A DNA stretch of 64,000 nt from the NCBI GenBank assembly GCA_015067485.1, contig SVMJ01000002.1:15401-79400 (forward strand), read 5' to 3'. The notes below the pieces were generated by a model. It worked only from the letters and a program-made list of their open reading frames with translations, did no database searches and was not told the origin of the DNA. The DNA is from Oscillospiraceae bacterium. GTDB taxonomy: Bacteria; Bacillota; Clostridia; Oscillospirales; JAAYXM01. The stretch's first letter is position 1. Each line of letters opens with the position of its first letter. Of this stretch, positions 478 to 25,829 are shown piece after piece. The position numbers were made by a program, and so were the translations under genes.

Positions 478-3400
478 ATGCTGAAAAACACAAAAAGATT
501 GTTCGCGCTCGTTTTATCTGTCGCGATGCTGGTCAGTCTGTTGCCGTCGGTTTCCGCGGCGTCCCTTTCTGACATCAAAGGGCATTGGGCGGAGGACTAC
601 ATCGAATACGGTGTCAGTACCGGCTACATCTCGGGCTATACCAACGGCACATTCCGTCCCAATAACACGGTAACCCGTGCGGAGTTCTCGAAAATGGTGA
701 ACACCGCGCTCGGCATCAATCACTCGGCGACCATCGGCTTCACCGATGTTTCGTCAAGCGACTGGTTCTACCAGGAAGTCAAGAAGGCGGTCTCTGCCGG
801 CTACATCTCGGGCTATTCGGACAACACCTTCGGCGCAAACCGTAACATCACCCGTCAGGAAGCAGCGGTTATGCTCGCACGTATCGTAACCGAGCCGGAA
901 ACCACAGGCTCCACCACTTTCGGCGATGCTTCCACCATCGACTCGTGGGCGCTCGCCTCGGTCTCCAAGATGGTCGCAAAGACCTACATGATGGGCGATC
1001 AGAAGGGTAACTTCCGTCCGAAAGCAGCACTCACTCGTGCAGAAGCGGCAAAGATTTTATATGAAGTACTCAAAAACGAGATCATCGCATCCAATAACCA
1101 GTCCTTCTCGGTTTCAGGGAGTTCGTATTACAACACCATCTACCCGAACAATGTAACAGTTACCGAAGGCGTGGTAAACGGTGCGATCTCCTTTAACTCC
1201 TGCCGCATCCTTGGCACGCTGACCGCAAGCGGCGGTGTGGATAGCGCAGTCAACCTGTCCAACACAGGCGTCAATACTCTGGTTGCGGCGAGTGCATCGG
1301 GTGAAGCGAAAGTTACTCTTTCCGGTTCTTCCTATGTTACCAAAACCACAGTCAACAACGGCGTTACCCTTTCGGGCAACGACTTCAATACCGTGTTCCT
1401 TTCCGGTTCGAGCCTTTCCAGCGACACCGTCCGCTTAAACGGCGACTTTGAAACCGTCAATGTGGACACCGACGCGGTCATCAAAGCGACCGGCACCATC
1501 GACCAGTTCACTGTCTATGACCGCGCGACCCTGATGCTCCAGTCGGGTTCCATCACCCGTTTGGATGTGGAAGCAGATGCGAAAAACTCGATGATCTCGC
1601 TCGCAGGCGGGGTAACGGTCGGTACCGCATACATCAAAACTTCCGCATCGTTCACGGGAACCGGCTCCATCACCACCGCATACGAAGGAATCGGTACCGT
1701 CTCTTACGAGACCCGCCCGCTCTCGGTAGTCGGCGGCAGCGGAAACTATGACGATGAAGACGAAGATAACACTTACGACGATGAAGAAACCTCCTCTTCT
1801 CTCGTTCCGCGCTTCTACCCCACCACTCGCTCGACCGATGTCTCGCTTGAGCCCACCATCCGTTTGTACTTCGACACTCCCATCTACCGTTCTTCTTCCA
1901 AGACTTCGATGACCACATCCTACATCGAAAACTACGCGGTGGAACTCCGTGAAGGCAGCACTTCCGGCTACTCGGTACCGTTTACCGCTTCTCTCAACAC
2001 TTCGGATACCACGGTTACCATCTCTCCGGATGAAGAACTCGAACCCGATACCACCTACTACATCGTGGTAGTCGCAGGAAAGATTTATGACGCAAGCGGC
2101 GAAAGCAACGGTCGTTCGTATGCATACTTCACCACCGAAGACGATTATAGCGGAAACTATGATGACGATGATTACACAGGAAGCGGCACTTTGAAGCCGT
2201 CCTTCTATCCGTCCAACGGTCAGACCAGCGTGGCTCGCACCCAGACCGTCCGCATCTCCTTTGGTGATACGGTCTACCGTTCTTCCGGCTCGACATTGAG
2301 TGAATCCTATGTGGAAAACAACTGCATTGAAGTCTACAAAGACAACTTAGACGGAAACCCGGTCTCGTTCAATGCTTCGCTCAACTCCTCGAAGACCATC
2401 ATCACACTCACCCCGGGGGCAAACTGGGAGACTAACACCACATACTATGTGGTCATCCCGGCAGGCACGCTGAGTGACCGCAACAACAATCTCAACAGCC
2501 GTATCGTGTCCCGTTTCTCCACGGGTGCTACCATTGACGGCGGCGACATCCTGTTCCATCCGTCAAACGGCGCAACCGACGTCGCGCTCGACGGTGAACT
2601 TTCCATCTCCTTCGAATCCCCGATCTATCAGTACGGTGGCGGCACGGTTACCGCACGTTATCTGGAAGAATCCGTACTCACTCTGCGCCGCAACAGCACC
2701 TATGGCAACTCGGTCTCGTTCACCGCAGAGATCAGTTCGAACAAGCGCTCCATCACCATTCTGCCCGATGAACCGTTAGATTCGAACACCACCTACTATC
2801 TCACTATCAACAACAATACCCTGCAGTATTCTTCTTCCAACAGAATCACCACGGTTACCAGCCAGTTCAAGACTTCCGACGGCACACTCCGTCTCTCGGA
2901 TCTCTCGCTCGGCGATGTAACATCCTCCACCGCAGACATCTATGTAACATCCAACACCTCGGGTAGCGTTACGGTTACCTTGTCTTCTTCCAAGGGTGCA
3001 CCGATTTCTCAAACCGTTTCGGTTACCGCAGGCCGTCAGACTTCCATGACCTTCACAGGTCTTGAGTCCAACACCGCATACACGGTTACCGCGGTCGCAA
3101 AAGACGCGGCGGACAGAACCTCCCAGGAAAAGAAGCAAACCTTCCTCTCCGGCTCACTCACGTTTGAACTCACCGCAAACGACATCACCAAGAACTCCGC
3201 AAACGTGGAAGCATCTTTCAACTCCATCGGTTCCATCTCGATCTCCTACAAGAAGGAAGGCGCGGCAAACTCCACTTCGCTTCTTTCTAACTTCACTCCG
3301 AACCGTGTGGGCAGTAAGACCGTCGCACTCACCAACCTGGATAGCGGCGCAACCTACCACGTTACCGCGACCTTTGAAGATGCAAGCGGAAACGTCGTGA

Positions 3401-3756
3401 CCCGTACCATCTCGTTTAAGACCGACGCGGTCTCCACCGAATCCGCACTCAAGAGTTTGCGTATCAACGGTGGCGACGGCAGTTATGAAGTGGAACTGAA
3501 GCCCGATGTCTACACCTACGATGTATCCATCGCAAACACCACCAGCATCACGGTAACCCCGGTTGCCGCGGCAGGTGATCGCGCGACCATCAAGGTCAAC
3601 AACTACATCGTCCATAGCGGTCAGATCTCCAACGAAATCTACGTCCGTGCAAACTCCAATGTGGCGTACACCACACAGATCCGCGTCACCGTCCAGCCGG
3701 AAAGCGGTCCGATCAAGACCTACACCATCAACGTCAAGGTCGCCCCCGCACTCTAA
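478..3756 (+). CDS. Large SLH-domain cell-surface (S-layer-associated) protein
   Basis: 1092-aa ORF with a signal peptide (LLPSVSAAS). Three tandem SLH repeats lie near the N-terminus (GHWAEDYIEYGVSTGYISGY.., SSDWFYQEVKKAVSAGYISGY.., IDSWALASVSKMVAKTYMMGD..). Three ~110-aa Ig-like repeats (FYP..T.VS....I.L.FD.PIYRSS) follow, separated by acidic GNYDD linkers. Fn3-like modules and a cadherin-like C-terminal module (ALKSLRINGG) complete it. Confidence 0.85.
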   Translation: MLKNTKRLFALVLSVAMLVSLLPSVSAASLSDIKGHWAEDYIEYGVSTGYISGYTNGTFRPNNTVTRAEFSKMVNTALGINHSATIGFTDVSSSDWFYQEVKKAVSAGYISGYSDNTFGANRNITRQEAAVMLARIVTEPETTGSTTFGDASTIDSWALASVSKMVAKTYMMGDQKGNFRPKAALTRAEAAKILYEVLKNEIIASNNQSFSVSGSSYYNTIYPNNVTVTEGVVNGAISFNSCRILGTLTASGGVDSAVNLSNTGVNTLVAASASGEAKVTLSGSSYVTKTTVNNGVTLSGNDFNTVFLSGSSLSSDTVRLNGDFETVNVDTDAVIKATGTIDQFTVYDRATLMLQSGSITRLDVEADAKNSMISLAGGVTVGTAYIKTSASFTGTGSITTAYEGIGTVSYETRPLSVVGGSGNYDDEDEDNTYDDEETSSSLVPRFYPTTRSTDVSLEPTIRLYFDTPIYRSSSKTSMTTSYIENYAVELREGSTSGYSVPFTASLNTSDTTVTISPDEELEPDTTYYIVVVAGKIYDASGESNGRSYAYFTTEDDYSGNYDDDDYTGSGTLKPSFYPSNGQTSVARTQTVRISFGDTVYRSSGSTLSESYVENNCIEVYKDNLDGNPVSFNASLNSSKTIITLTPGANWETNTTYYVVIPAGTLSDRNNNLNSRIVSRFSTGATIDGGDILFHPSNGATDVALDGELSISFESPIYQYGGGTVTARYLEESVLTLRRNSTYGNSVSFTAEISSNKRSITILPDEPLDSNTTYYLTINNNTLQYSSSNRITTVTSQFKTSDGTLRLSDLSLGDVTSSTADIYVTSNTSGSVTVTLSSSKGAPISQTVSVTAGRQTSMTFTGLESNTAYTVTAVAKDAADRTSQEKKQTFLSGSLTFELTANDITKNSANVEASFNSIGSISISYKKEGAANSTSLLSNFTPNRVGSKTVALTNLDSGATYHVTATFEDASGNVVTRTISFKTDAVSTESALKSLRINGGDGSYEVELKPDVYTYDVSIANTTSITVTPVAAAGDRATIKVNNYIVHSGQISNEIYVRANSNVAYTTQIRVTVQPESGPIKTYTINVKVAPAL

Positions 3757-3764
3757 CAAAACAA

Positions 3765-3794
3765 AAAGCCGAGCATCAATCGATGCTCGGCTTT
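3765..3794. terminator. Bidirectional terminator between convergent SLH gene and galU
   Basis: 13-bp perfect stem AAAGCCGAGCATC/GATGCTCGGCTTT with a 4-nt loop, flanked by an A-run on the left and T-rich sequence on the right. Confidence 0.7.
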
Positions 3795-3803
3795 CTGTTT
3801 CAC

Positions 3804-4661
3804 TTACAAATTCTTCAGATAATCTCTAAACCAGTCGCCTACTTCGGGATGCTGGAGCGCGATCTGAACCGTTGCGTGCAGGTATCCACGGAGATTTCCC
3901 GTATCATATCGTACCCCTTCATACTCCACGCCAAGCAACTTCTGTGTCTGACAGAGCGCGTTGAGCCCGTCAGTCAGCTGAATTTCGCCGCCGTACCCTG
4001 CCGACAGATGCTCCAGCATATTGTAGATTTCGGGGGTGAGAACATATCGTCCCAAAATCGCGTAGTTGGACATAATCTGATCGAGTCTCGGTTTTTCGAT
4101 GAGTTTATGGACTTCCATCACGCGCTCTTCCACCGGAGTAACATCCAGCGAGCAGTACTTGCTGATTTGGTCGTTGGGGACGTAACTGACCCCAACGGTT
4201 GCGCAACCTGTTTTTTCATATACATCCAAAAGCTGGCGGGTAACAGGGGTCTTGCCCACCATGACATCGTCGCCGAGCAATACCGCAAAGGGTTCCGAAC
4301 CCGTAAATGCCTTCGCGCACAAAATCGCATGACCCAGCCCGTGCTGTTCTTTCTGACGGATGAATGTGATATCCGCCATATCCGCGATGGCACGGAGTGC
4401 GTCTGCCTCTTCTTCACGGCCGGATGCGCGTAGTTTCGCCTCGAGTTCGGGCGAATAGTCAAAATAGTCGCAAAGTTCTTCCTTGCCACGGCTGGTGATG
4501 ATTAAAATTTCGGAAATCCCTGATTTCACCGCTTCTTCCACAATGTAGTGGATGCTCGGGCGGTCGACCAACGGGAGCATTTCTTTCGGAATCGCTTTGG
4601 TCGCGGGCAGCATACGGGTGCCAAACCCCGCGGCAGGGATAACAGCTTTCTTTACTTTCAT
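3804..4661 (-). CDS. galU: UTP--glucose-1-phosphate uridylyltransferase
   Basis: MKVKKAVIPAAGFGTRMLPATKAIPKEMLPLVD... is the canonical GalU N-terminus. ATG at 4661 lies 8 nt after AGGAG, so the GTG at 4670 in the track is too close to the RBS. Confidence 0.9.
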   Translation of the reverse strand: MKVKKAVIPAAGFGTRMLPATKAIPKEMLPLVDRPSIHYIVEEAVKSGISEILIITSRGKEELCDYFDYSPELEAKLRASGREEEADALRAIADMADITFIRQKEQHGLGHAILCAKAFTGSEPFAVLLGDDVMVGKTPVTRQLLDVYEKTGCATVGVSYVPNDQISKYCSLDVTPVEERVMEVHKLIEKPRLDQIMSNYAILGRYVLTPEIYNMLEHLSAGYGGEIQLTDGLNALCQTQKLLGVEYEGVRYDTGNLRGYLHATVQIALQHPEVGDWFRDYLKNL

Positions 4662-5626: not shown

Positions 5627-6079
5627 ATGTTAAACAAAGCAATCCTGATGGGTCGTCTCACCAAAGACCCCGAACTGCGTCATACCCAGTCCAACATCCC
5701 GGTCGCATCCTTTACCCTTGCGGTAGACCGTGGGTACTCCAAAAACAATGCGGAAGGTCAGCAGACGGTTGACTTCATCAACATCGTCGCATGGCGCGGC
5801 ACCGCAGAGTTCGTATCCAAATGGTTCCGCAAAGGTCAACTGGTGGCGGTTTCTGGGCGGATCCAGGTCCGCAACTGGACAGATCGGGACAACAACAATC
5901 GGACTACTTGCGAAATCGTGGCAGACGAATGCTTCTTCGCAGAGTCCAAGCGTGATTCCGCGCCGAGCGCGGATGCGTTCCCCTATGGCGGCAACTCCGC
6001 ACCGGCAGCAGCGCCCACCATGCCGAACATGGCACAGTTTGAGGAACTGCTCGACGGCGACGAAGACTTGCCGTTCTAA
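5627..6079 (+). CDS. ssb: Single-stranded DNA-binding protein
   Basis: MLNKAILMGRLTKDPELRHT.. OB fold, with the acidic C-terminal tip DGDEDLPF. Confidence 0.95.
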   Translation: MLNKAILMGRLTKDPELRHTQSNIPVASFTLAVDRGYSKNNAEGQQTVDFINIVAWRGTAEFVSKWFRKGQLVAVSGRIQVRNWTDRDNNNRTTCEIVADECFFAESKRDSAPSADAFPYGGNSAPAAAPTMPNMAQFEELLDGDEDLPF

Positions 6080-6109: not shown

Positions 6110-6337
6110 ATGGATCGTAACAGAAGCCGTAAGCGCAAAAAAGTTTGCTCTTTCTGCGTTGATAAAGCCGGACAGATCGATTACAAAGATACCGCAAAAC
6201 TGCGCCGTTATCTTTCCGATCGTTCCAAAATCCTGCCGCGCAGAATGACCGGTGTTTGTGCAGAGCATCAGCGTCAGTTGACCGTCGCAATCAAGCGTGC
6301 ACGTCATATCGCTCTGCTCCCGTACATTACCGACTAA
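6110..6337 (+). CDS. rpsR: 30S ribosomal protein S18
   Basis: [63 protein letters not shown]. Confidence 0.95.
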
Positions 6338-22117: not shown

Positions 22118-22252
22118 ATCAAAATCCCTCCGTTTTTTGAGGTGATACTTTCCCTTTTCTATCATACCAAATTTTTTGTCTCTTTTCCACCGTATCGAAA
22201 ACTTTTTTTGATTTATTTTTCATTTTGTTGTAAAATAATTTTTGGAAAATAC

Positions 22253-22327
22253 GCCGCTTTAGTTAAATGGATATAACAGCCCCCTCCTAAGGGGCAGTTG
22301 AGGGTTCGATTCCCCCAAGCGGTGCCA
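22253..22327 (+). tRNA. tRNA-Arg (anticodon CCT)
   Basis: Hand-folded cloverleaf: acceptor GCCGCTT/AAGCGGT, D stem GTTA/TAAC, anticodon stem GCCCC/GGGGC with loop CTCCTAA (U33, CCT, A37). T arm is GAGGG-TTCGATT-CCCCC with one A:C mismatch. The CCA is encoded. Confidence 0.8.
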
Positions 22328-22330
22328 GAA

Positions 22331-22360
22331 AAAACCTCGTTCTTCAAAACGAGGTTTTTT
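22331..22360 (+). terminator. Terminator after tRNA-Arg
   Basis: CCTCGT/ACGAGG stem preceded by an A-run and followed by T6. Confidence 0.65.
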
Positions 22361-22361
22361 C

Positions 22362-22508
22362 AATGATGTTTGCCTTTGGCAAATGATGACGCTTACGCTA
22401 ATGATGTTTCCTTCGGAAATGATGTCGGATTTGCCCAATTTTTGAAGTAAACATCGCATCATTGCGAGTAAAGCGAGCAACATCATTATGCTGAGCATAA
22501 CATCATAT
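22362..22508. repeat. Heptamer-repeat imperfect palindrome (AATGATG x4 forward, CATCATT x3 reverse)
   Basis: AATGATG at 22362, 22382, 22400 and 22418 (18-20 bp spacing). CATCATT at 22457 and 22481, and CATCAT at 22501. Mini-hairpins lie between copies (TTTGCC-TTT-GGCAAA, TTTCC-TTC-GGAAA, ATGCT-G-AGCAT). The reverse arm aligns unit by unit with the forward arm. Confidence 0.7.
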
Positions 22509-22578
22509 CGCCATCGACGATGCTTCTTACATGACCGGTCAGTCCATCGCGGTCGACGGCGGTTACACCACCCTGTGA
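22501..22578 (+). pseudogene. 3'-terminal remnant of a short-chain dehydrogenase/reductase gene
   Basis: The frame reads ..IDDASYMTGQSIAVDGGYTTL*, the conserved C-terminus of classical SDRs. In-frame stops lie immediately upstream (TGA 22492, TAA 22498). No N-terminal part is present, and its own terminator follows. Confidence 0.6.
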
Positions 22579-22595
22579 TTCTCTCATCTAACACA

Positions 22596-22627
22596 AAAAG
22601 CACTTGCGAAAGCAAGTGCTTTTTTTC
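22596..22627 (+). terminator. Terminator belonging to the SDR remnant
   Basis: AAAAAGCACTTGC-GAAA-GCAAGTGCTTTTTTT. Confidence 0.75.
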
Positions 22628-22679
22628 TTGAAAAACCTTATCACTTCCTGTAAAATGAAATTATATTGGAGGTGGTCTC

Positions 22680-23156
22680 ATGCAAACGGTCTATCAAAAA
22701 GCATATGCGCATCTTGCAAATGTCACCCCCATCCCCGCGGACTGCGGGATACTCTGCTCCTCCCGCTGCTGCAAGGGCGACAACAACCAAGGCATGATTT
22801 TGTTCCCGGGTGAAGCCGAATTTTTGGGCATCTCCGCACAAAAGCGTACCATGGGCGACACCGAAGTAGACTTCTTTGTGTGTGACGGCACGTGCAACCG
22901 CGCCCGCCGTCCGCTCTCCTGCCGCATCTTCCCGTTTGCACCCTATCTCAAAGATGGAGAACTCTCTGTCATTCCCGATCCGCGTGCACGCTTTTTGTGT
23001 CCGCTCCTGGAGGAAGAAGCGCTCCCGTTTGTGCAAAAAGAATTTATCACCGCGATCAAAACCGCGTTTACACTTCTTTGCGAAGATGCATCGATCCGTG
23101 GAATGCTCATCCAATATTCCGCAATGCTCGATGAATACAAACGGTTTACAAAATAA
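22680..23156 (+). CDS. Cysteine-cluster protein (YkgJ/UPF0153-like, putative Zn/Fe-chelating)
   Basis: 158-aa ORF with a GGAGGTGG RBS. Contains DCGILCSSRCCKG (C-x3-C-x3-CC) plus later CDGTC and C..FPF motifs. Family assignment is from memory of the CxxCxxCC domain only. Confidence 0.5.
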   Translation: MQTVYQKAYAHLANVTPIPADCGILCSSRCCKGDNNQGMILFPGEAEFLGISAQKRTMGDTEVDFFVCDGTCNRARRPLSCRIFPFAPYLKDGELSVIPDPRARFLCPLLEEEALPFVQKEFITAIKTAFTLLCEDASIRGMLIQYSAMLDEYKRFTK

Positions 23157-23206: not shown

Positions 23207-23480
23207 CAAATTTGAATATCACAAAAAGACTGCGACGAAGACGGTCGGTTCGTGATGCTTTTAGAGAGTTGCCGGATGGTGCAAGGCAATAGCGGAGCGT
23301 TCCAATGGCTTATCACTTCTGAGTCGAAGGACCGAAAGCGAAAGTGAGTAGACTCCTTCCGTATTGCTGCGTAAAGGCAAAGGGCTTGTCAGAGCCCGGT
23401 GAGTGACGGATTTTCCGTAACTTGAGTGGTACCGCGGGTTGTAAGGCTCGTCTCAAGAAGATCTTGAGACGGGTTTTTTT
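23207..23480 (+). promoter_or_regulatory. T-box riboswitch leader (tRNA-sensing transcription attenuator)
   Basis: AG-bulge AGAGAG (23263-23268) is followed directly by hairpin TTGCC-GGATGGTGCAA-GGCAA carrying the distal-loop GGTGCAA motif. T-box core GAGTGGTACCGCGG lies at 23424-23437. Terminator CGTCTCAAG/CTTGAGACG plus T7 lies at 23447-23480. The terminator 5' arm CTCAAG can instead pair with CTTGAG of the T-box, forming the antiterminator. Confidence 0.85.
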
Positions 23481-23534: not shown

Positions 23535-25829
23535 ATGGACTACAATCTGAAAGATGTTGCTGAGCGCATCAAGAATCTGCGTGAAGCGAAGGGCTTCAGC
23601 CCGGAAGAACTTGCAAAACTCACTGATATTTCCACCGAAGACTACTTGGTACTGGAGCAGGGTGAAACCGATTTCAGTTTCACTTTCATCTACAAATGTG
23701 CAAGAGCGTGCGGTGTCGACGTGGTCGACCTGCTCGAAGGCACCAGTTCTACCCTGTCGTCTTTCACCGTTACCCGCAAAGGGCAGGGTGCAAAGATCCT
23801 CAAAAAGCACGGGGTGGTCTACGATAACCTCGCCCCCAAGTTCAAAGGCAAACTCGCAGAGCCGTTCCTTGTCACCTTCCCCTATTTGGAAGAAGAGCAG
23901 AACGCGCCCATGAAATTAAACTCCCACAAGGGTCAGGAGTTTGACGTCATCGTCAAAGGCTCGCTCAAAGTCCAGGTGGGAAACCATGTGGAAGTCTTAA
24001 ATGAAGGCGACTCCATTTTCTATAACAGTACGCTTCCGCACGGCATGATCGCGGTAAGCGAAGGCGGCTGCGAATTCTACGCGGTGGTCTTAAACCCGAA
24101 AGACGGCTCGATCGAAGAAGATCCCGAAACCCCGTTCATCGTCTCCAAGTCTGCGGAAAAAGTCGTAATGAGAACCGTTGCGGATGATTTTGTGGAGTCT
24201 TCTTACGATGAAAACGGCGTTTTCTCCGGCATTTCTTTCAAAAACGATGACAAATTCAACTTCGCATTTGACTGTGTGGACGCAATCGCGGAAAAAGACC
24301 CCGACAAACTCGCAATGATGTGGGTGGCAAACGACAAGTCCGACCGCAAGTTCACCTTCTCGGACATGAAGAAATACTCGGCAAAGACCGCAAACTACTT
24401 TGAATCCCTCGGCATCAAAAAGGGCGACACGGTTATGCTGGTCTTAAAGCGTCACTACCAATTCTGGTTCTGTATGCTCGCATTGCATAAGATCGGCGCA
24501 ATCGCGATCCCCGCAACCAATCAGCTCGTCGAACATGACTTCACCTACCGTTACAAAGCGGCAAAAGTTAAGGCAATCGTCTGTACTGCAGACGGATCTG
24601 TCTCGGACGAAGCAGAAAAAGCAGCAGCAGAATTCCCGGGTATGGTCAAAGTTTTGGTCGGCGGCAAGAAAGACGGTTGGAACGACTTTAACGTGGAAAT
24701 GGAGCGTTTCAGCACCAACTATCCGCGCAAAGCAGACTCTCCCTGCGGCAATGACCCCATGCTCATGCTCTTTACATCCGGCACTACGGGCTATCCGCGC
24801 ATCGCGACCCATTCGTATAAATACGCGCTCGGTCATTATCCCACTGCAAAGCATTGGCACAACGTAAACCCGAACGGGCTGCACTTCACCATTTCGGATA
24901 CCGGCTGGGGCAAGGCGCTCTGGGGCAAACTTTACGGACAGTGGCTGTGCGAAGCGGCAGTCTTCACCTATGACTTTGACCGTTTCCACTCGGATGACAT
25001 CCTGCCCATGTTTGCAAAATACAACATCACCACATTCTGTGCACCGCCCACCATGTACCGCTTCTTCATCAAGGAAGACCTGTCCAAGTATGACTTGTCC
25101 TCCATCGAATATGCGACCACCGCGGGTGAAGCGCTCAACCCGGAAGTCTTCAATCAGTTCAAGAAAGCCACCGGACTCACCATCATGGAAGGCTTCGGGC
25201 AGACCGAAACCACCCTTTCTATCGCAAACTTTGTGGGCTCTACATCCAAAGTCGGTTCCATGGGCAAGCCCAGCCCGCTCTATGACGTTGCGATCTTAGA
25301 CCCGGATGGAAACGAATGCAAGACCGGTGATACCGGTGAGATCTGCATCCGCACCAAAGACGGCGCACCCTGCGGTCTGTTCATCGGCTATTATCTGGAC
25401 GAAGAAAAGACCAATGAAGTCTGGCACGACGGCTACTATCATACCGGTGACCAGGCAACCATGGACGAAGACGGATACCTTTGGTATGTCGGTCGTATCG
25501 ACGACGTCATCAAATCCTCGGGTTACCGCATCGGTCCGTTTGAGATCGAAAGCGTCATCATGGAACTCCCCTACGTACTCGAATGTGCGATCACCCCTGT
25601 CCCCGACGAAGTCCGCGGACAGATCGTCAAAGCCACCATCGTACTCACCAAGAACACGGTCGGCACCGACGACCTCAAAAAGGAAATTCAGGAATATGTC
25701 AAAACCCACACCGCGCCGTACAAGTACCCGCGCATCGTGGAATTTGTTGACGAACTCCCGAAAACCATCAGCGGCAAGATCCGCCGCGTCGAGATCCGCA
25801 AGAAAGACACCGAAAATCTGGGTAAATAG
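23535..25829 (+). CDS. Fusion protein: XRE-type HTH + cupin domain + AMP-forming acyl-CoA synthetase (ANL superfamily)
   Basis: N-terminal HTH (LKDVAERIKNLREAKGFSPEELAKLTDISTEDYLVLEQG). Cupin (HKGQEFDVIVKGSLKVQVGNHVEVLNEGDSIFYNSTLPHGM). ANL motifs LMLFTSGTTGYPR, YGQTE-like GFGQTET, YHTGD, SSGYRIGPFEIE and PKTISGKIRR. AAAGGAGA RBS. Confidence 0.8.
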   Translation: MDYNLKDVAERIKNLREAKGFSPEELAKLTDISTEDYLVLEQGETDFSFTFIYKCARACGVDVVDLLEGTSSTLSSFTVTRKGQGAKILKKHGVVYDNLAPKFKGKLAEPFLVTFPYLEEEQNAPMKLNSHKGQEFDVIVKGSLKVQVGNHVEVLNEGDSIFYNSTLPHGMIAVSEGGCEFYAVVLNPKDGSIEEDPETPFIVSKSAEKVVMRTVADDFVESSYDENGVFSGISFKNDDKFNFAFDCVDAIAEKDPDKLAMMWVANDKSDRKFTFSDMKKYSAKTANYFESLGIKKGDTVMLVLKRHYQFWFCMLALHKIGAIAIPATNQLVEHDFTYRYKAAKVKAIVCTADGSVSDEAEKAAAEFPGMVKVLVGGKKDGWNDFNVEMERFSTNYPRKADSPCGNDPMLMLFTSGTTGYPRIATHSYKYALGHYPTAKHWHNVNPNGLHFTISDTGWGKALWGKLYGQWLCEAAVFTYDFDRFHSDDILPMFAKYNITTFCAPPTMYRFFIKEDLSKYDLSSIEYATTAGEALNPEVFNQFKKATGLTIMEGFGQTETTLSIANFVGSTSKVGSMGKPSPLYDVAILDPDGNECKTGDTGEICIRTKDGAPCGLFIGYYLDEEKTNEVWHDGYYHTGDQATMDEDGYLWYVGRIDDVIKSSGYRIGPFEIESVIMELPYVLECAITPVPDEVRGQIVKATIVLTKNTVGTDDLKKEIQEYVKTHTAPYKYPRIVEFVDELPKTISGKIRRVEIRKKDTENLGK

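Follow-up and report, generated by a model that had tools for sequence, protein, structure and literature searches.

An orphan Gut-1-like palindromic hairpin array between a tRNA-Arg terminator and a dehydrogenase gene remnant in an Oscillospiraceae bacterium

Gut-1 is listed in Rfam (RF01706) as a family of the small RNA (sRNA) type with no known function, and its consensus consists of three hairpins, each preceded by the linker GUGAAAU. The class was described by Weinberg et al. (2010; PMC2864571) from 43 human-gut sequences only, was rated "RNA? Y" and was not regarded as cis-regulatory. In the alignment of that study, the seed BAAZ01025322.1 reads as a tRNA, a terminator, GUGAUAU-hairpin units, a centre and hairpin-AUAUCAC units (PMC2864571). 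A block of a similar kind was investigated in a 64,000-nucleotide stretch of an Oscillospiraceae bacterium (assembly GCA_015067485.1, contig SVMJ01000002.1, positions 15,401 to 79,400 of the forward strand); the whole stretch is called the window here and is numbered from its first letter. The block lies between the terminator of a tRNA-Arg(CCT) gene and the 3' remnant of a short-chain dehydrogenase (SDR) gene, and had been singled out by a sequence-only reading, made without database searches, as four AATGATG heptamers facing three CATCAT(T) copies across an AT-rich centre. The interpretation preferred here, held with roughly even confidence, is that the block is an orphan Gut-1-like palindromic hairpin array that acts at the DNA level as a boundary between a tRNA terminator and a promoter.

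Three other described systems share some of these features. Repetitive extragenic palindromic (REP) sequences and bacterial interspersed mosaic elements (BIMEs) of Enterobacteria are extragenic mosaics of small imperfect palindromes, which alternate in orientation and lie downstream of genes or terminators. Avd, which belongs to diversity-generating retroelements (DGRs), binds nucleic acid. PF05635 proteins, which are encoded inside intervening sequences of 23S rRNA genes, resemble this DGR accessory protein (PMC10053308). Mini-hairpin DNA of the form GCGNAGC/GCGNNAGC is extraordinarily stable and is found at single-strand initiation sites (review PMC13037366).

On the + strand of the window, AATGATG starts at 22362, 22382, 22400 and 22418, CATCATT at 22457 and 22481, and CATCAT at 22501, in agreement with the arrangement first reported. 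The pattern ATGATG-N8-24-ATGATG was counted over the 64-kb window with 100 shuffles as control; five matches fell within the block against 0.12 expected for the whole window, and the window total of six was equalled by 0/100 shuffles. AATGATG was not enriched outside the block (11 in the window against 12 expected, 6 of the 11 being in the block). The hairpin-forming spacers TTTGCCtttGGCAAA, TTTCCttcGGAAA and TTATGCtgaGCATAA folded as the sequence-only reading had supposed, and the fold of the spacer GCGAGTAAAGCGAGC (22464-22478) contained a tandem G.A mismatch. In the centre, AAACATCG is complementary to GATGTTT in unit 1. The AAACAT of the centre is invariant in the family alignment (A3), and the window has GTAAAC against GGCAAAC in most copies. 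The long-range pairing between unit 1 and the centre (GATGTTTGCC/GGCAAACATC) is conserved, with no convincing compensatory change seen. A fourth right-arm unit, ATCGCCATCGACGATGCTTCTT (22507-22528), was identical at 19/20 positions to the last unit, ATCGCCATCGGCGATGCTTCAT, of the copy L235 (L-numbers denote the loci compared). The block therefore ends near 22528 and shares sequence with the first SDR codons. Unit-by-unit homology of the arms, as first proposed, did not prove general in the family.

Other readings of the repeats were considered and set aside. A mini open reading frame (ORF) of the form ATG ATG ... TGA does not fit, because unit lengths vary from 17 to 21 nt and frames are not kept. 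A likeness to C/D boxes or K-turns (UGAUG) gave weak snoRNA matches of 10-19 bits. The heptads of the omega repressor (WATCACW) bear some likeness to the repeats, and their spacing is wrong.

Comparison with Rfam placed the block near Gut-1, so that the motif, at first unrecognised, can be described as a sub-threshold relative of that family. Positions 22361-22430 of the window scored 18 bits (E = 2.7) against RF01706, below the gathering cut-off of 50 bits, and the Rfam gathering scan of the whole window returned tRNA only, with no family above threshold for the block. Gut-1 was the only Rfam family that the arms resembled and the best Rfam match of each arm. The best score of the AATGATG subtype was obtained at L240, where 35.2 bits were reached by the forward arm; the reverse arm, on the opposite strand, scored 24.5 bits. 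Bona fide Gut-1 copies occurred in the same contigs as AATGATG blocks (L271, 72 bits; L267, 58.8 bits), and at L271 the partner arm was on the opposite strand. Like Gut-1, the block has tandem short GC-rich hairpins and a purine-rich linker with a UGA core (GUGAAAU/GUGAUAU against AAUGAUG), and both are found in gut Clostridia. It differs from Gut-1 in having another linker heptamer (AAUGAUG against the consensus GUGAAAU) and scores below the cut-off, and the published model describes one arm as an sRNA. Judged from sequence, the block is probably a linker variant, the AATGATG subtype, of a Gut-1-like superfamily; it is not a member of RF01706, and the published Gut-1 motif appears to be one arm of a palindrome.

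Copies were collected in two scans. In the first, 185,579 species genomes were searched for three AATGATG at the observed spacing, which also returned many microsatellite and coding matches; in the second, metagenome contigs were searched for the conserved centre AAACATCGCATCATTGCGA, and nearly all of the 72 loci found were true copies. From both scans, 88 copies of the same architecture (4 + 3-4 units) were gathered. Their hosts were Oscillospiraceae, Ruminococcus, Faecousia and "Eubacteriales" metagenome-assembled genomes, that is, gut and rumen Clostridia. Four forward and four reverse units were the commonest form, and a subtype had three CATCAT and a last unit ending in GATGCTTCAT; the window block belongs to this three-CATCAT subtype. 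It has the features that define an AATGATG-type array, namely the T-run, four units, the AAACATCG centre and three or four inverted units. The search for further copies that had been suggested thus showed that the block recurs: blastn analysis of 22355-22523 revealed 88% identity to the nearest copy, L308, 85% to L275 and L278, and 83% to L235, and the block together with its terminator shared 83% identity with L311, where the block is preceded by a terminator nearly identical to that of the window. Units 2 and 3 of the window block were identical to units of L278 and L308, and the linkers were invariant (alignment A3).

The canonical module opens with an intrinsic terminator, usually that of a tRNA gene and in fewer cases that of a protein gene. 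Four units of AATGATG and a short hairpin come next, then a centre with GGCAAACATCG, three or four inverted hairpin-CATCATT units and, directly after them, a sigma-70 promoter, whose commonest target is a PF05635 gene. In all 76 copies with a readable left flank, the left edge lay at the T-run of an intrinsic terminator (..TTTTTT(G/C)A followed by ATGATGTTTGCC). A complete tRNA gene ended 35-65 nt upstream in at least 29 of the 71 evaluable copies, with 21 different anticodons, and many of the remaining copies were preceded by tRNA 3'-end fragments. A rightward sigma-70 promoter was present within 100 nt to the right of the block in 40 of 80 flanks, and in 27 of these 40 promoter-bearing copies the -35 box started -1 to +5 nt from the last CATCAT. 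Promoters pointing leftward occurred in 7/80 flanks at scattered positions, and almost none lay inside the block.

Several contigs carried two or three blocks with a single small gene between them, and blocks with the linkers ATGAAA, GTGAAA and ATGAAG were found nearby in the same contigs. On the minus strand of L234 (~3120-2930), an ATGAAG/CTTCAT array follows the terminator of a protein gene, 650 nt downstream of an ATGATG block. A second conserved repeat was also seen: two tandem copies resembling CACCTTTTAGTCGYTCTTTC lie ~60 nt before the terminator of non-tRNA copies, and a repeat of this kind, a recurring pre-terminator module, ends the small genes between successive blocks at L275, L271, L290, L287, L234, L302, L325, L293 and L310. 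At L267 (~5640-5660 and ~6230-6260), two copies of the tRNA-3'-end-like GGTTCAAATCCCGCCACTCCGACCA, where ARAGORN found neither tRNA nor tmRNA, enclose an ATGATG block together with a true Gut-1 (GTGAAA) block. The block had no blastn match in the phage collection. In viral contigs, the heptamer pattern gave microsatellite and coding matches only and the 16-mer core gave 3 true contigs of 38; the element is therefore not regarded as viral.

The hairpins of the family were examined on fixed-length alignments of single units, since the unit hairpins were out of register in the whole-block MAFFT alignment. Of the 175 distinct units, 114 had at least four perfect pairs, where shuffling gave an expectation of about 11. 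Among 12-nt units, 81.7% of cells were paired and 29 cells had changed on both sides; among 14-nt units, the values were 93.3% and 40. None of 500 shuffles reached the pairing values of either length, and slid controls were far lower. The unit stems are thus under selection for pairing, which fits either nucleic acid.

Four observations favour DNA, although none is decisive: the terminator that abuts the block together with the lack of a promoter for it, the strand-switching C(GNA)G loops, the restriction of the good loops to one arm in any single transcript, and the rarity of G-U pairs. On the CATCAT strand, the loops were GNA in 61 cases, GNNA in 19 and TNC in 1, with a C-G closing pair in 117/135, which is the signature of the mini-hairpin DNA GCGNAGC/GCGNNAGC (PMC13037366). 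In the left arm the - strand folded better (67 against 8 units), in the right arm the + strand did (49 against 6), and the switch lay at the centre. G-U pairs made up 19/1362 pairs in the block hairpins; in the adjacent terminators, which must function in RNA and served as an internal control, they made up 52/1267 on the + strand and 21/1225 on the - strand (Fisher p = 2e-5).

The same data bear on the alternative that the block is a structured RNA of the Gut-1 class, transcribed by tRNA read-through or from the opposite strand and ending at a bidirectional terminator. Such an RNA might work as an sRNA or protein sponge of many hairpins whose AAUGAUG linkers are single-stranded, or it might form a long imperfect hairpin cut by RNase III. 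Cutting by RNase III occurs in the PF05635-encoding intervening sequences of 23S rRNA. This reading would account for the match of each arm to an sRNA-typed Rfam family with true Gut-1 in the same contigs, for the covarying stems, for the fold of the + strand (-49.3 kcal/mol, z = -3.9) and for the position beside a highly transcribed tRNA gene, and it agrees with the rating of Weinberg et al. and with the location of PF05635 genes inside 23S rRNA intervening sequences (PMC10053308). However, a strong terminator lies directly upstream and leaves 0-2 nt to the first linker; neither direction showed a conserved promoter; the loops of a single transcript would be GNA in one arm but UNC in the other; and the frequency of G-U pairs is about one third of that in the neighbouring terminators. 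In the alignment of Weinberg et al. itself, a predicted terminator precedes the motif on the same strand (PMC2864571). An RNA of this kind is considered rather unlikely and is the foremost alternative to the preferred reading. The sequence-only reading had named "a multi-site protein-binding platform or a structured RNA" among its alternatives, which comes near to the reading that the evidence favours.

The loop sequences also recall mini-hairpin DNA, since C(GNA)G or C(GNNA)G occurred in 80/135 array loops. The described mini-hairpins differ in being single hairpins in phage and plasmid origins, whereas the array has eight per element and is chromosomal and intergenic. A function as a single-strand DNA initiation or priming signal, or as an array of hairpin promoters, was weighed on this basis, with ssiA/ssiB of RSF1010, the phage G4 origin and the N4 hairpin promoters as models; mini-hairpins on opposite strands would be entry sites for primase or polymerase when the DNA is single-stranded. 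Its appeal lies in the motifs CCGAAGG and GCGAAGC, which are known from such sites (PMC13037366), and in the switch of the hairpin-bearing strand at the AT-rich centre. The block, however, is associated with no replication or primase gene, its context between terminator and promoter is chromosomal, and viral or plasmid enrichment is lacking (no match in the phage collection; 3 true viral contigs). Such a role appears highly improbable.

The gene most often found next to the block encodes a PF05635 protein. About 25 of 75 right flanks, or about one third, start with such a gene. The protein beginning with MKENKLAELSMEFS matched PF05635, the "23S rRNA-intervening sequence" four-helix bundle, at E = 1e-15, with 2RLD as the nearest solved structure. 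The MKENKLAELSMEFS clade stood behind ATGATG blocks in at least 25 cases, and the clade beginning with MTENKLADMSTEFA stood behind ATGAAA/TTTCAT blocks at L276, L286 and L302. The former is abundant, with at least 8000 candidate clusters at 90% identity, the best 120 of which were all at least 90% identical. As in the intervening sequences of 23S rRNA genes and the Avd proteins of DGRs, a PF05635 gene is combined here with a long inverted repeat at a stable-RNA gene (rRNA there, tRNA here). Unlike in the intervening sequences, the PF05635 gene lies outside the inverted repeat under its own promoter, and the element is downstream of a terminator. Unlike in DGRs, there is no reverse transcriptase, template or variable repeat, and the window copy has no PF05635 gene. 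Literature on the function of Gut-1 and PF05635 yielded nothing beyond Weinberg et al. (2010) and the DGR review.

The PF05635 gene was also seen as the first of small variable two-gene units (L368-L377, L271 and L302). The second gene encodes a 145-aa protein without a Pfam match, whose start overlaps the PF05635 stop, a 159-aa protein, or a putative acetyltransferase, so read from its N-terminal sequence. This arrangement is reminiscent of cassettes or of toxin-antitoxin-like pairs.

According to the preferred reading of the block as a DNA-level hairpin array, each strand of an unwound or supercoiled duplex would extrude stable C(GNA)G mini-hairpins, the strand with the stable hairpins switching at the centre. 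The invariant heptamer linkers would provide sequence-specific contacts for a bound factor, for which the co-inherited PF05635 protein, with clades that track the linker type, is the best candidate. The element might then be a fixed boundary and an upstream platform that separates the strongly transcribed tRNA unit from the promoter that follows it, and the palindrome could be a preferred end point for rearrangements. More tentatively, and only as a possibility for the class, Gut-1 would not be an sRNA but half of a chromosomal DNA palindrome of gut Clostridia, placed where tRNA and other transcription units end and read by Avd-like PF05635 proteins; the heptamer linkers would confer specificity and the C(GNA)G mini-hairpins would supply the scaffold.

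Several points weigh against this reading. Stem covariation is equally expected for RNA, and the rarity of G-U pairs could also reflect mutational "perfecting" of palindromes. Rfam curators and Weinberg et al. (2010) rate Gut-1 as certainly RNA, and read-through from the tRNA gene could transcribe the block. The link between clade and linker comes, for the second PF05635 clade, from three loci, and the search patterns were AATGATG-biased. To the right of some two thirds of the blocks lies a different gene or no gene at all, which would require the PF05635 protein to act in trans.

The sequence-only reading had proposed a cargo-less relic or a derivative, resembling a miniature inverted-repeat transposable element (MITE), of a transposon or integrative element that targeted the 3' flank of the tRNA gene and deleted the SDR gene. 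That the element recurs and is linked to tRNA genes was borne out by the 88 copies, at least 29/71 of them after a tRNA. The arms are inverted, with three or four subterminal repeats each and terminal inverted repeats AATGATG...CATCATT, as in a transposon, and the copies lie downstream of many different tRNAs, in some contigs two or three together with single small genes between them. The two copies of L325 share the terminator, left arm and centre and differ in their right arms, like a mosaic, and L186 and L247 are truncated at the centre; both observations also speak against complete stability of the block, and the palindrome is evidently a site at which recombination and deletion tend to end. 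The interval is hypervariable among close strains, and in L150 and L369 a large serine recombinase gene adjoins the module.

The part of the proposal concerning transposon ends, att sites or a MITE was not sustained. No target-site duplication was seen; the left flank was always TTTTTT(G/C)A, and the right flanks varied and never repeated the left. Between the arms of the 88 copies there was only the short centre and no transposase or integrase, and where flanks were inspected (genes were listed at five loci) no transposase adjoined the copies, whose neighbours were PF05635 genes or small genes unrelated to it. Functional signals, the T-run of a terminator and in many copies a -35 box, form the edges, and not arbitrary target DNA. 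The tRNA contexts Thr-Tyr (L205, L370), Leu-GAG (L235, L240, L303), Ala-GGC (five loci), Gln-TTG and Ser-GGA recur across species, which suggests old, vertically kept sites. The stems of the units differ within one element, unlike the binding sites of a single transposase, and no second copy of the tRNA-Arg 3' end, as expected for an att repeat, was found in the window. Moreover, the crossover of the serine recombinase would lie inside the T-arm/acceptor of the tRNA, to the left of the terminator and block. An origin as such a relic is judged improbable.

In a series of loci from one species (L368-L377) with an identical PF05635 protein (P0198), the right side is constant, with the block, the PF05635 gene, the 145-aa gene and usually a leucine-rich repeat (LRR) gene. 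The left side varies: tRNA-Thr/Tyr may be directly adjacent (L370, L372), a large serine recombinase may be present (L369, as in L150), or there may be defence-type cargo, a CAP12-PCTIR TIR protein in L374 and AAA_15 and DUF3226 in L371. In L375, a different terminator is joined exactly between TTTTTTGA and ATGATG. Since only the DNA on the left varies, islands integrate into the tRNA, to the left of the terminator and block, the block itself keeps its place, and the tRNA fragments beside blocks are ordinary attachment scars. The interval between tRNA-Tyr and the block in this series looks like an integration site of defence islands. The 3' ends of the serine recombinase genes (L150, ~3027-4430; L369, 802-2286) run into a tRNA-like T-arm/acceptor, GGTTCGGATTTA..CACCA, before the terminator and block, which suggests that the attachment core overlaps the stop region of the recombinase gene and that tRNA 3' ends are targeted.

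Among repeat families, the array is comparable to REP/BIME sequences, being extragenic, post-terminator and multi-copy, with small palindromes in both orientations, compensatory variation in the stems and short flanking motifs. It differs from them in that there is no sequence similarity, the layout is far more regular (4 + 4 units) and the relation to a promoter is fixed. The partner gene here encodes PF05635. No REP-associated tyrosine transposase (RAYT or TnpA_REP, a Y1 HUH transposase) was seen in the gene calls and Pfam matches of the encoding-contig loci, with no systematic RAYT search made.

The features around the block are listed in Table 1. ARAGORN, Rfam and the inverted-repeat and terminator scans all agreed with the tRNA gene and terminator reported on the 5' side and with the second terminator on the 3' side. 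The first terminator, T1, carries an A-run and a T-run, the latter abutting the first AATGATG, and is potentially bidirectional.

Table 1. Coordinates of the block and its flanking features in the window.
Feature	Position	Strand	Sequence or basis
Promoter-like site of tRNA-Arg(CCT)	22208-22236		Promoter scan
tRNA-Arg(CCT)	22253-22327	+	ARAGORN; Rfam tRNA 59.5 bits; upstream anchor of the block
Terminator T1	22328-22361	+	GAAAAAACCTCGTT/AACGAGGTTTTTTC; inverted repeat I3, 14 nt, 100% complementary; terminator scan
Left arm	22362-22424	+	Four AATGATG linkers and three hairpin spacers
Left-arm spacer	22369-22383		TTTGCCTTTGGCAAA
Left-arm spacer	22389-22399		ACGCTTACGCT
Left-arm spacer	22407-22419		TTTCCTTCGGAAA
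Centre, AT-rich	22425-22456	.	TCGGATTTGCCCAATTTTTGAAGTAAACATCG, includes the family-conserved AAACATCG
Right arm	22457-22528	+	CATCATT (22457) then GCGAGTAAAGCGAGC; CATCATT (22481) then TTATGCTGAGCATAA (22486-22500)
Right arm, end	22501-22528		CATCAT (22501) then hairpin ATCGCCATCGACGAT (22507-22521); degenerate linker GCTTCTT (22522-22528) last
SDR gene 3' remnant	22507-22578	+	Ends in ..IAIDDASYMTGQSIAVDGGYTTL and a stop codon; frame closed upstream by TAA at 22498
Terminator T2 of SDR remnant	22590-22629	+	Inverted repeat I1
Native ykgJ-like promoter	22628-22656	+	TTGAAA-17-TAAAAT; 10/12 matches; promoter scan

The peptide of the SDR tail, HHIAIDDASYMTGQSIAVDGGYTTL (ending in ..DDASYMTGQSIAVDGGYTTL and a stop), matched adh_short_C2 (PF13561) at E = 1.7e-4 and 21.7 bits; it covers positions 217-236 of 236 and then stops, and the other ~215 positions are absent. 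By this profile match, the tail is a genuine C-terminal fragment of a short-chain dehydrogenase, of which ~17-21 codons and the terminator are left. A tail of ~20 codons had been proposed from the sequence, and its identity was upheld; the part of it read as codons at 22507-22521 is the fourth hairpin. Block and SDR gene join somewhere within 22507-22528; this stretch is compatible with either partner, which points to microhomology.

The core of terminator T2 (22596-22624, AAAAGCACTTGCGAAAGCAAGTGCTTTTT) was 100% identical in blastn to the block-preceding terminators of L263 (29/29) and L322 (25/25), and near-identical to those of L258 and L234. Terminators thus seem to travel with the hairpin-array module.

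In relatives whose ykgJ-like proteins are 98%, 82% and 72% identical, neither the block nor an SDR fragment was present between the tRNA gene (or its surroundings) and ykgJ; the interval held an amidohydrolase, a KAP NTPase and TetR, or an XRE-type gene instead. The comparison of the tRNA-Arg/ykgJ interval that had been recommended thus revealed a variable hot spot without the block. Homology between the window and the relatives L009-L012 resumes only at the ykgJ promoter, at ~22628 (alignment A2), so that the strain-specific 300 bp consist of T1, the block, the SDR tail and T2. In eight contigs with an identical ykgJ protein, which represent the same strain, the interval was 100% identical throughout.

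The canonical right side of the module, a promoter and often a PF05635 gene, is replaced in the window by the SDR fragment and its terminator, and no PF05635 ORF occurs within the 64 kb. The window copy is thus an orphan that has lost its own promoter and partner gene. The ancestral order may have been tRNA-Arg, T1, block, promoter, one or more genes ending in SDR, T2 and ykgJ; a deletion from the last block unit to the final ~20 SDR codons would have produced the present junction.

Further observations were made around the locus. The DNA just 5' of the ykgJ promoter differs in every relative examined (L009-L017), where DUF1295 was found besides the genes already named, and is a strain-level hot spot. 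At L013 (2086-2095), an N-run scaffold gap lies within a partial duplicate of the 5' half of tRNA-Arg(CCT), upstream of the complete tRNA; the duplicate could be an assembly artefact or a real hot-spot duplication. The ykgJ-like protein itself (22680-23156) is Cys-rich, has 158 aa and is without a Pfam match. Downstream of it, a T-box leader at 23223-23458 (79.3 bits, E = 5e-17, below the Rfam gathering score of 93) precedes an unusual 764-aa fusion gene of HTH_3, Cupin_2 and AMP-binding domains (23535-25829). A T-box over an acyl-adenylate-forming enzyme with an N-terminal HTH-cupin departs from the standard aminoacyl-tRNA synthetase context.

For this window the biological weight of the finding is small, as the copy is an orphan beside a gene remnant. 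For annotation, it accounts for a recurrent unannotated 170-bp feature beside tRNA genes and for why deletions and islands end there. Gut-1, in Rfam since 2010 and drawn from uncultured gut bacteria, is classed there as an sRNA without a known function and is possibly a misassigned DNA element, and PF05635 proteins are among the most abundant uncharacterised small proteins. If the proposed reading is true, PF05635 proteins outside DGRs would gain a first cognate nucleic-acid target and a mechanistic link to the inverted-repeat intervening sequences of 23S rRNA genes, and the two unknowns, Gut-1-type arrays and PF05635, would become one testable protein-nucleic acid hypothesis.

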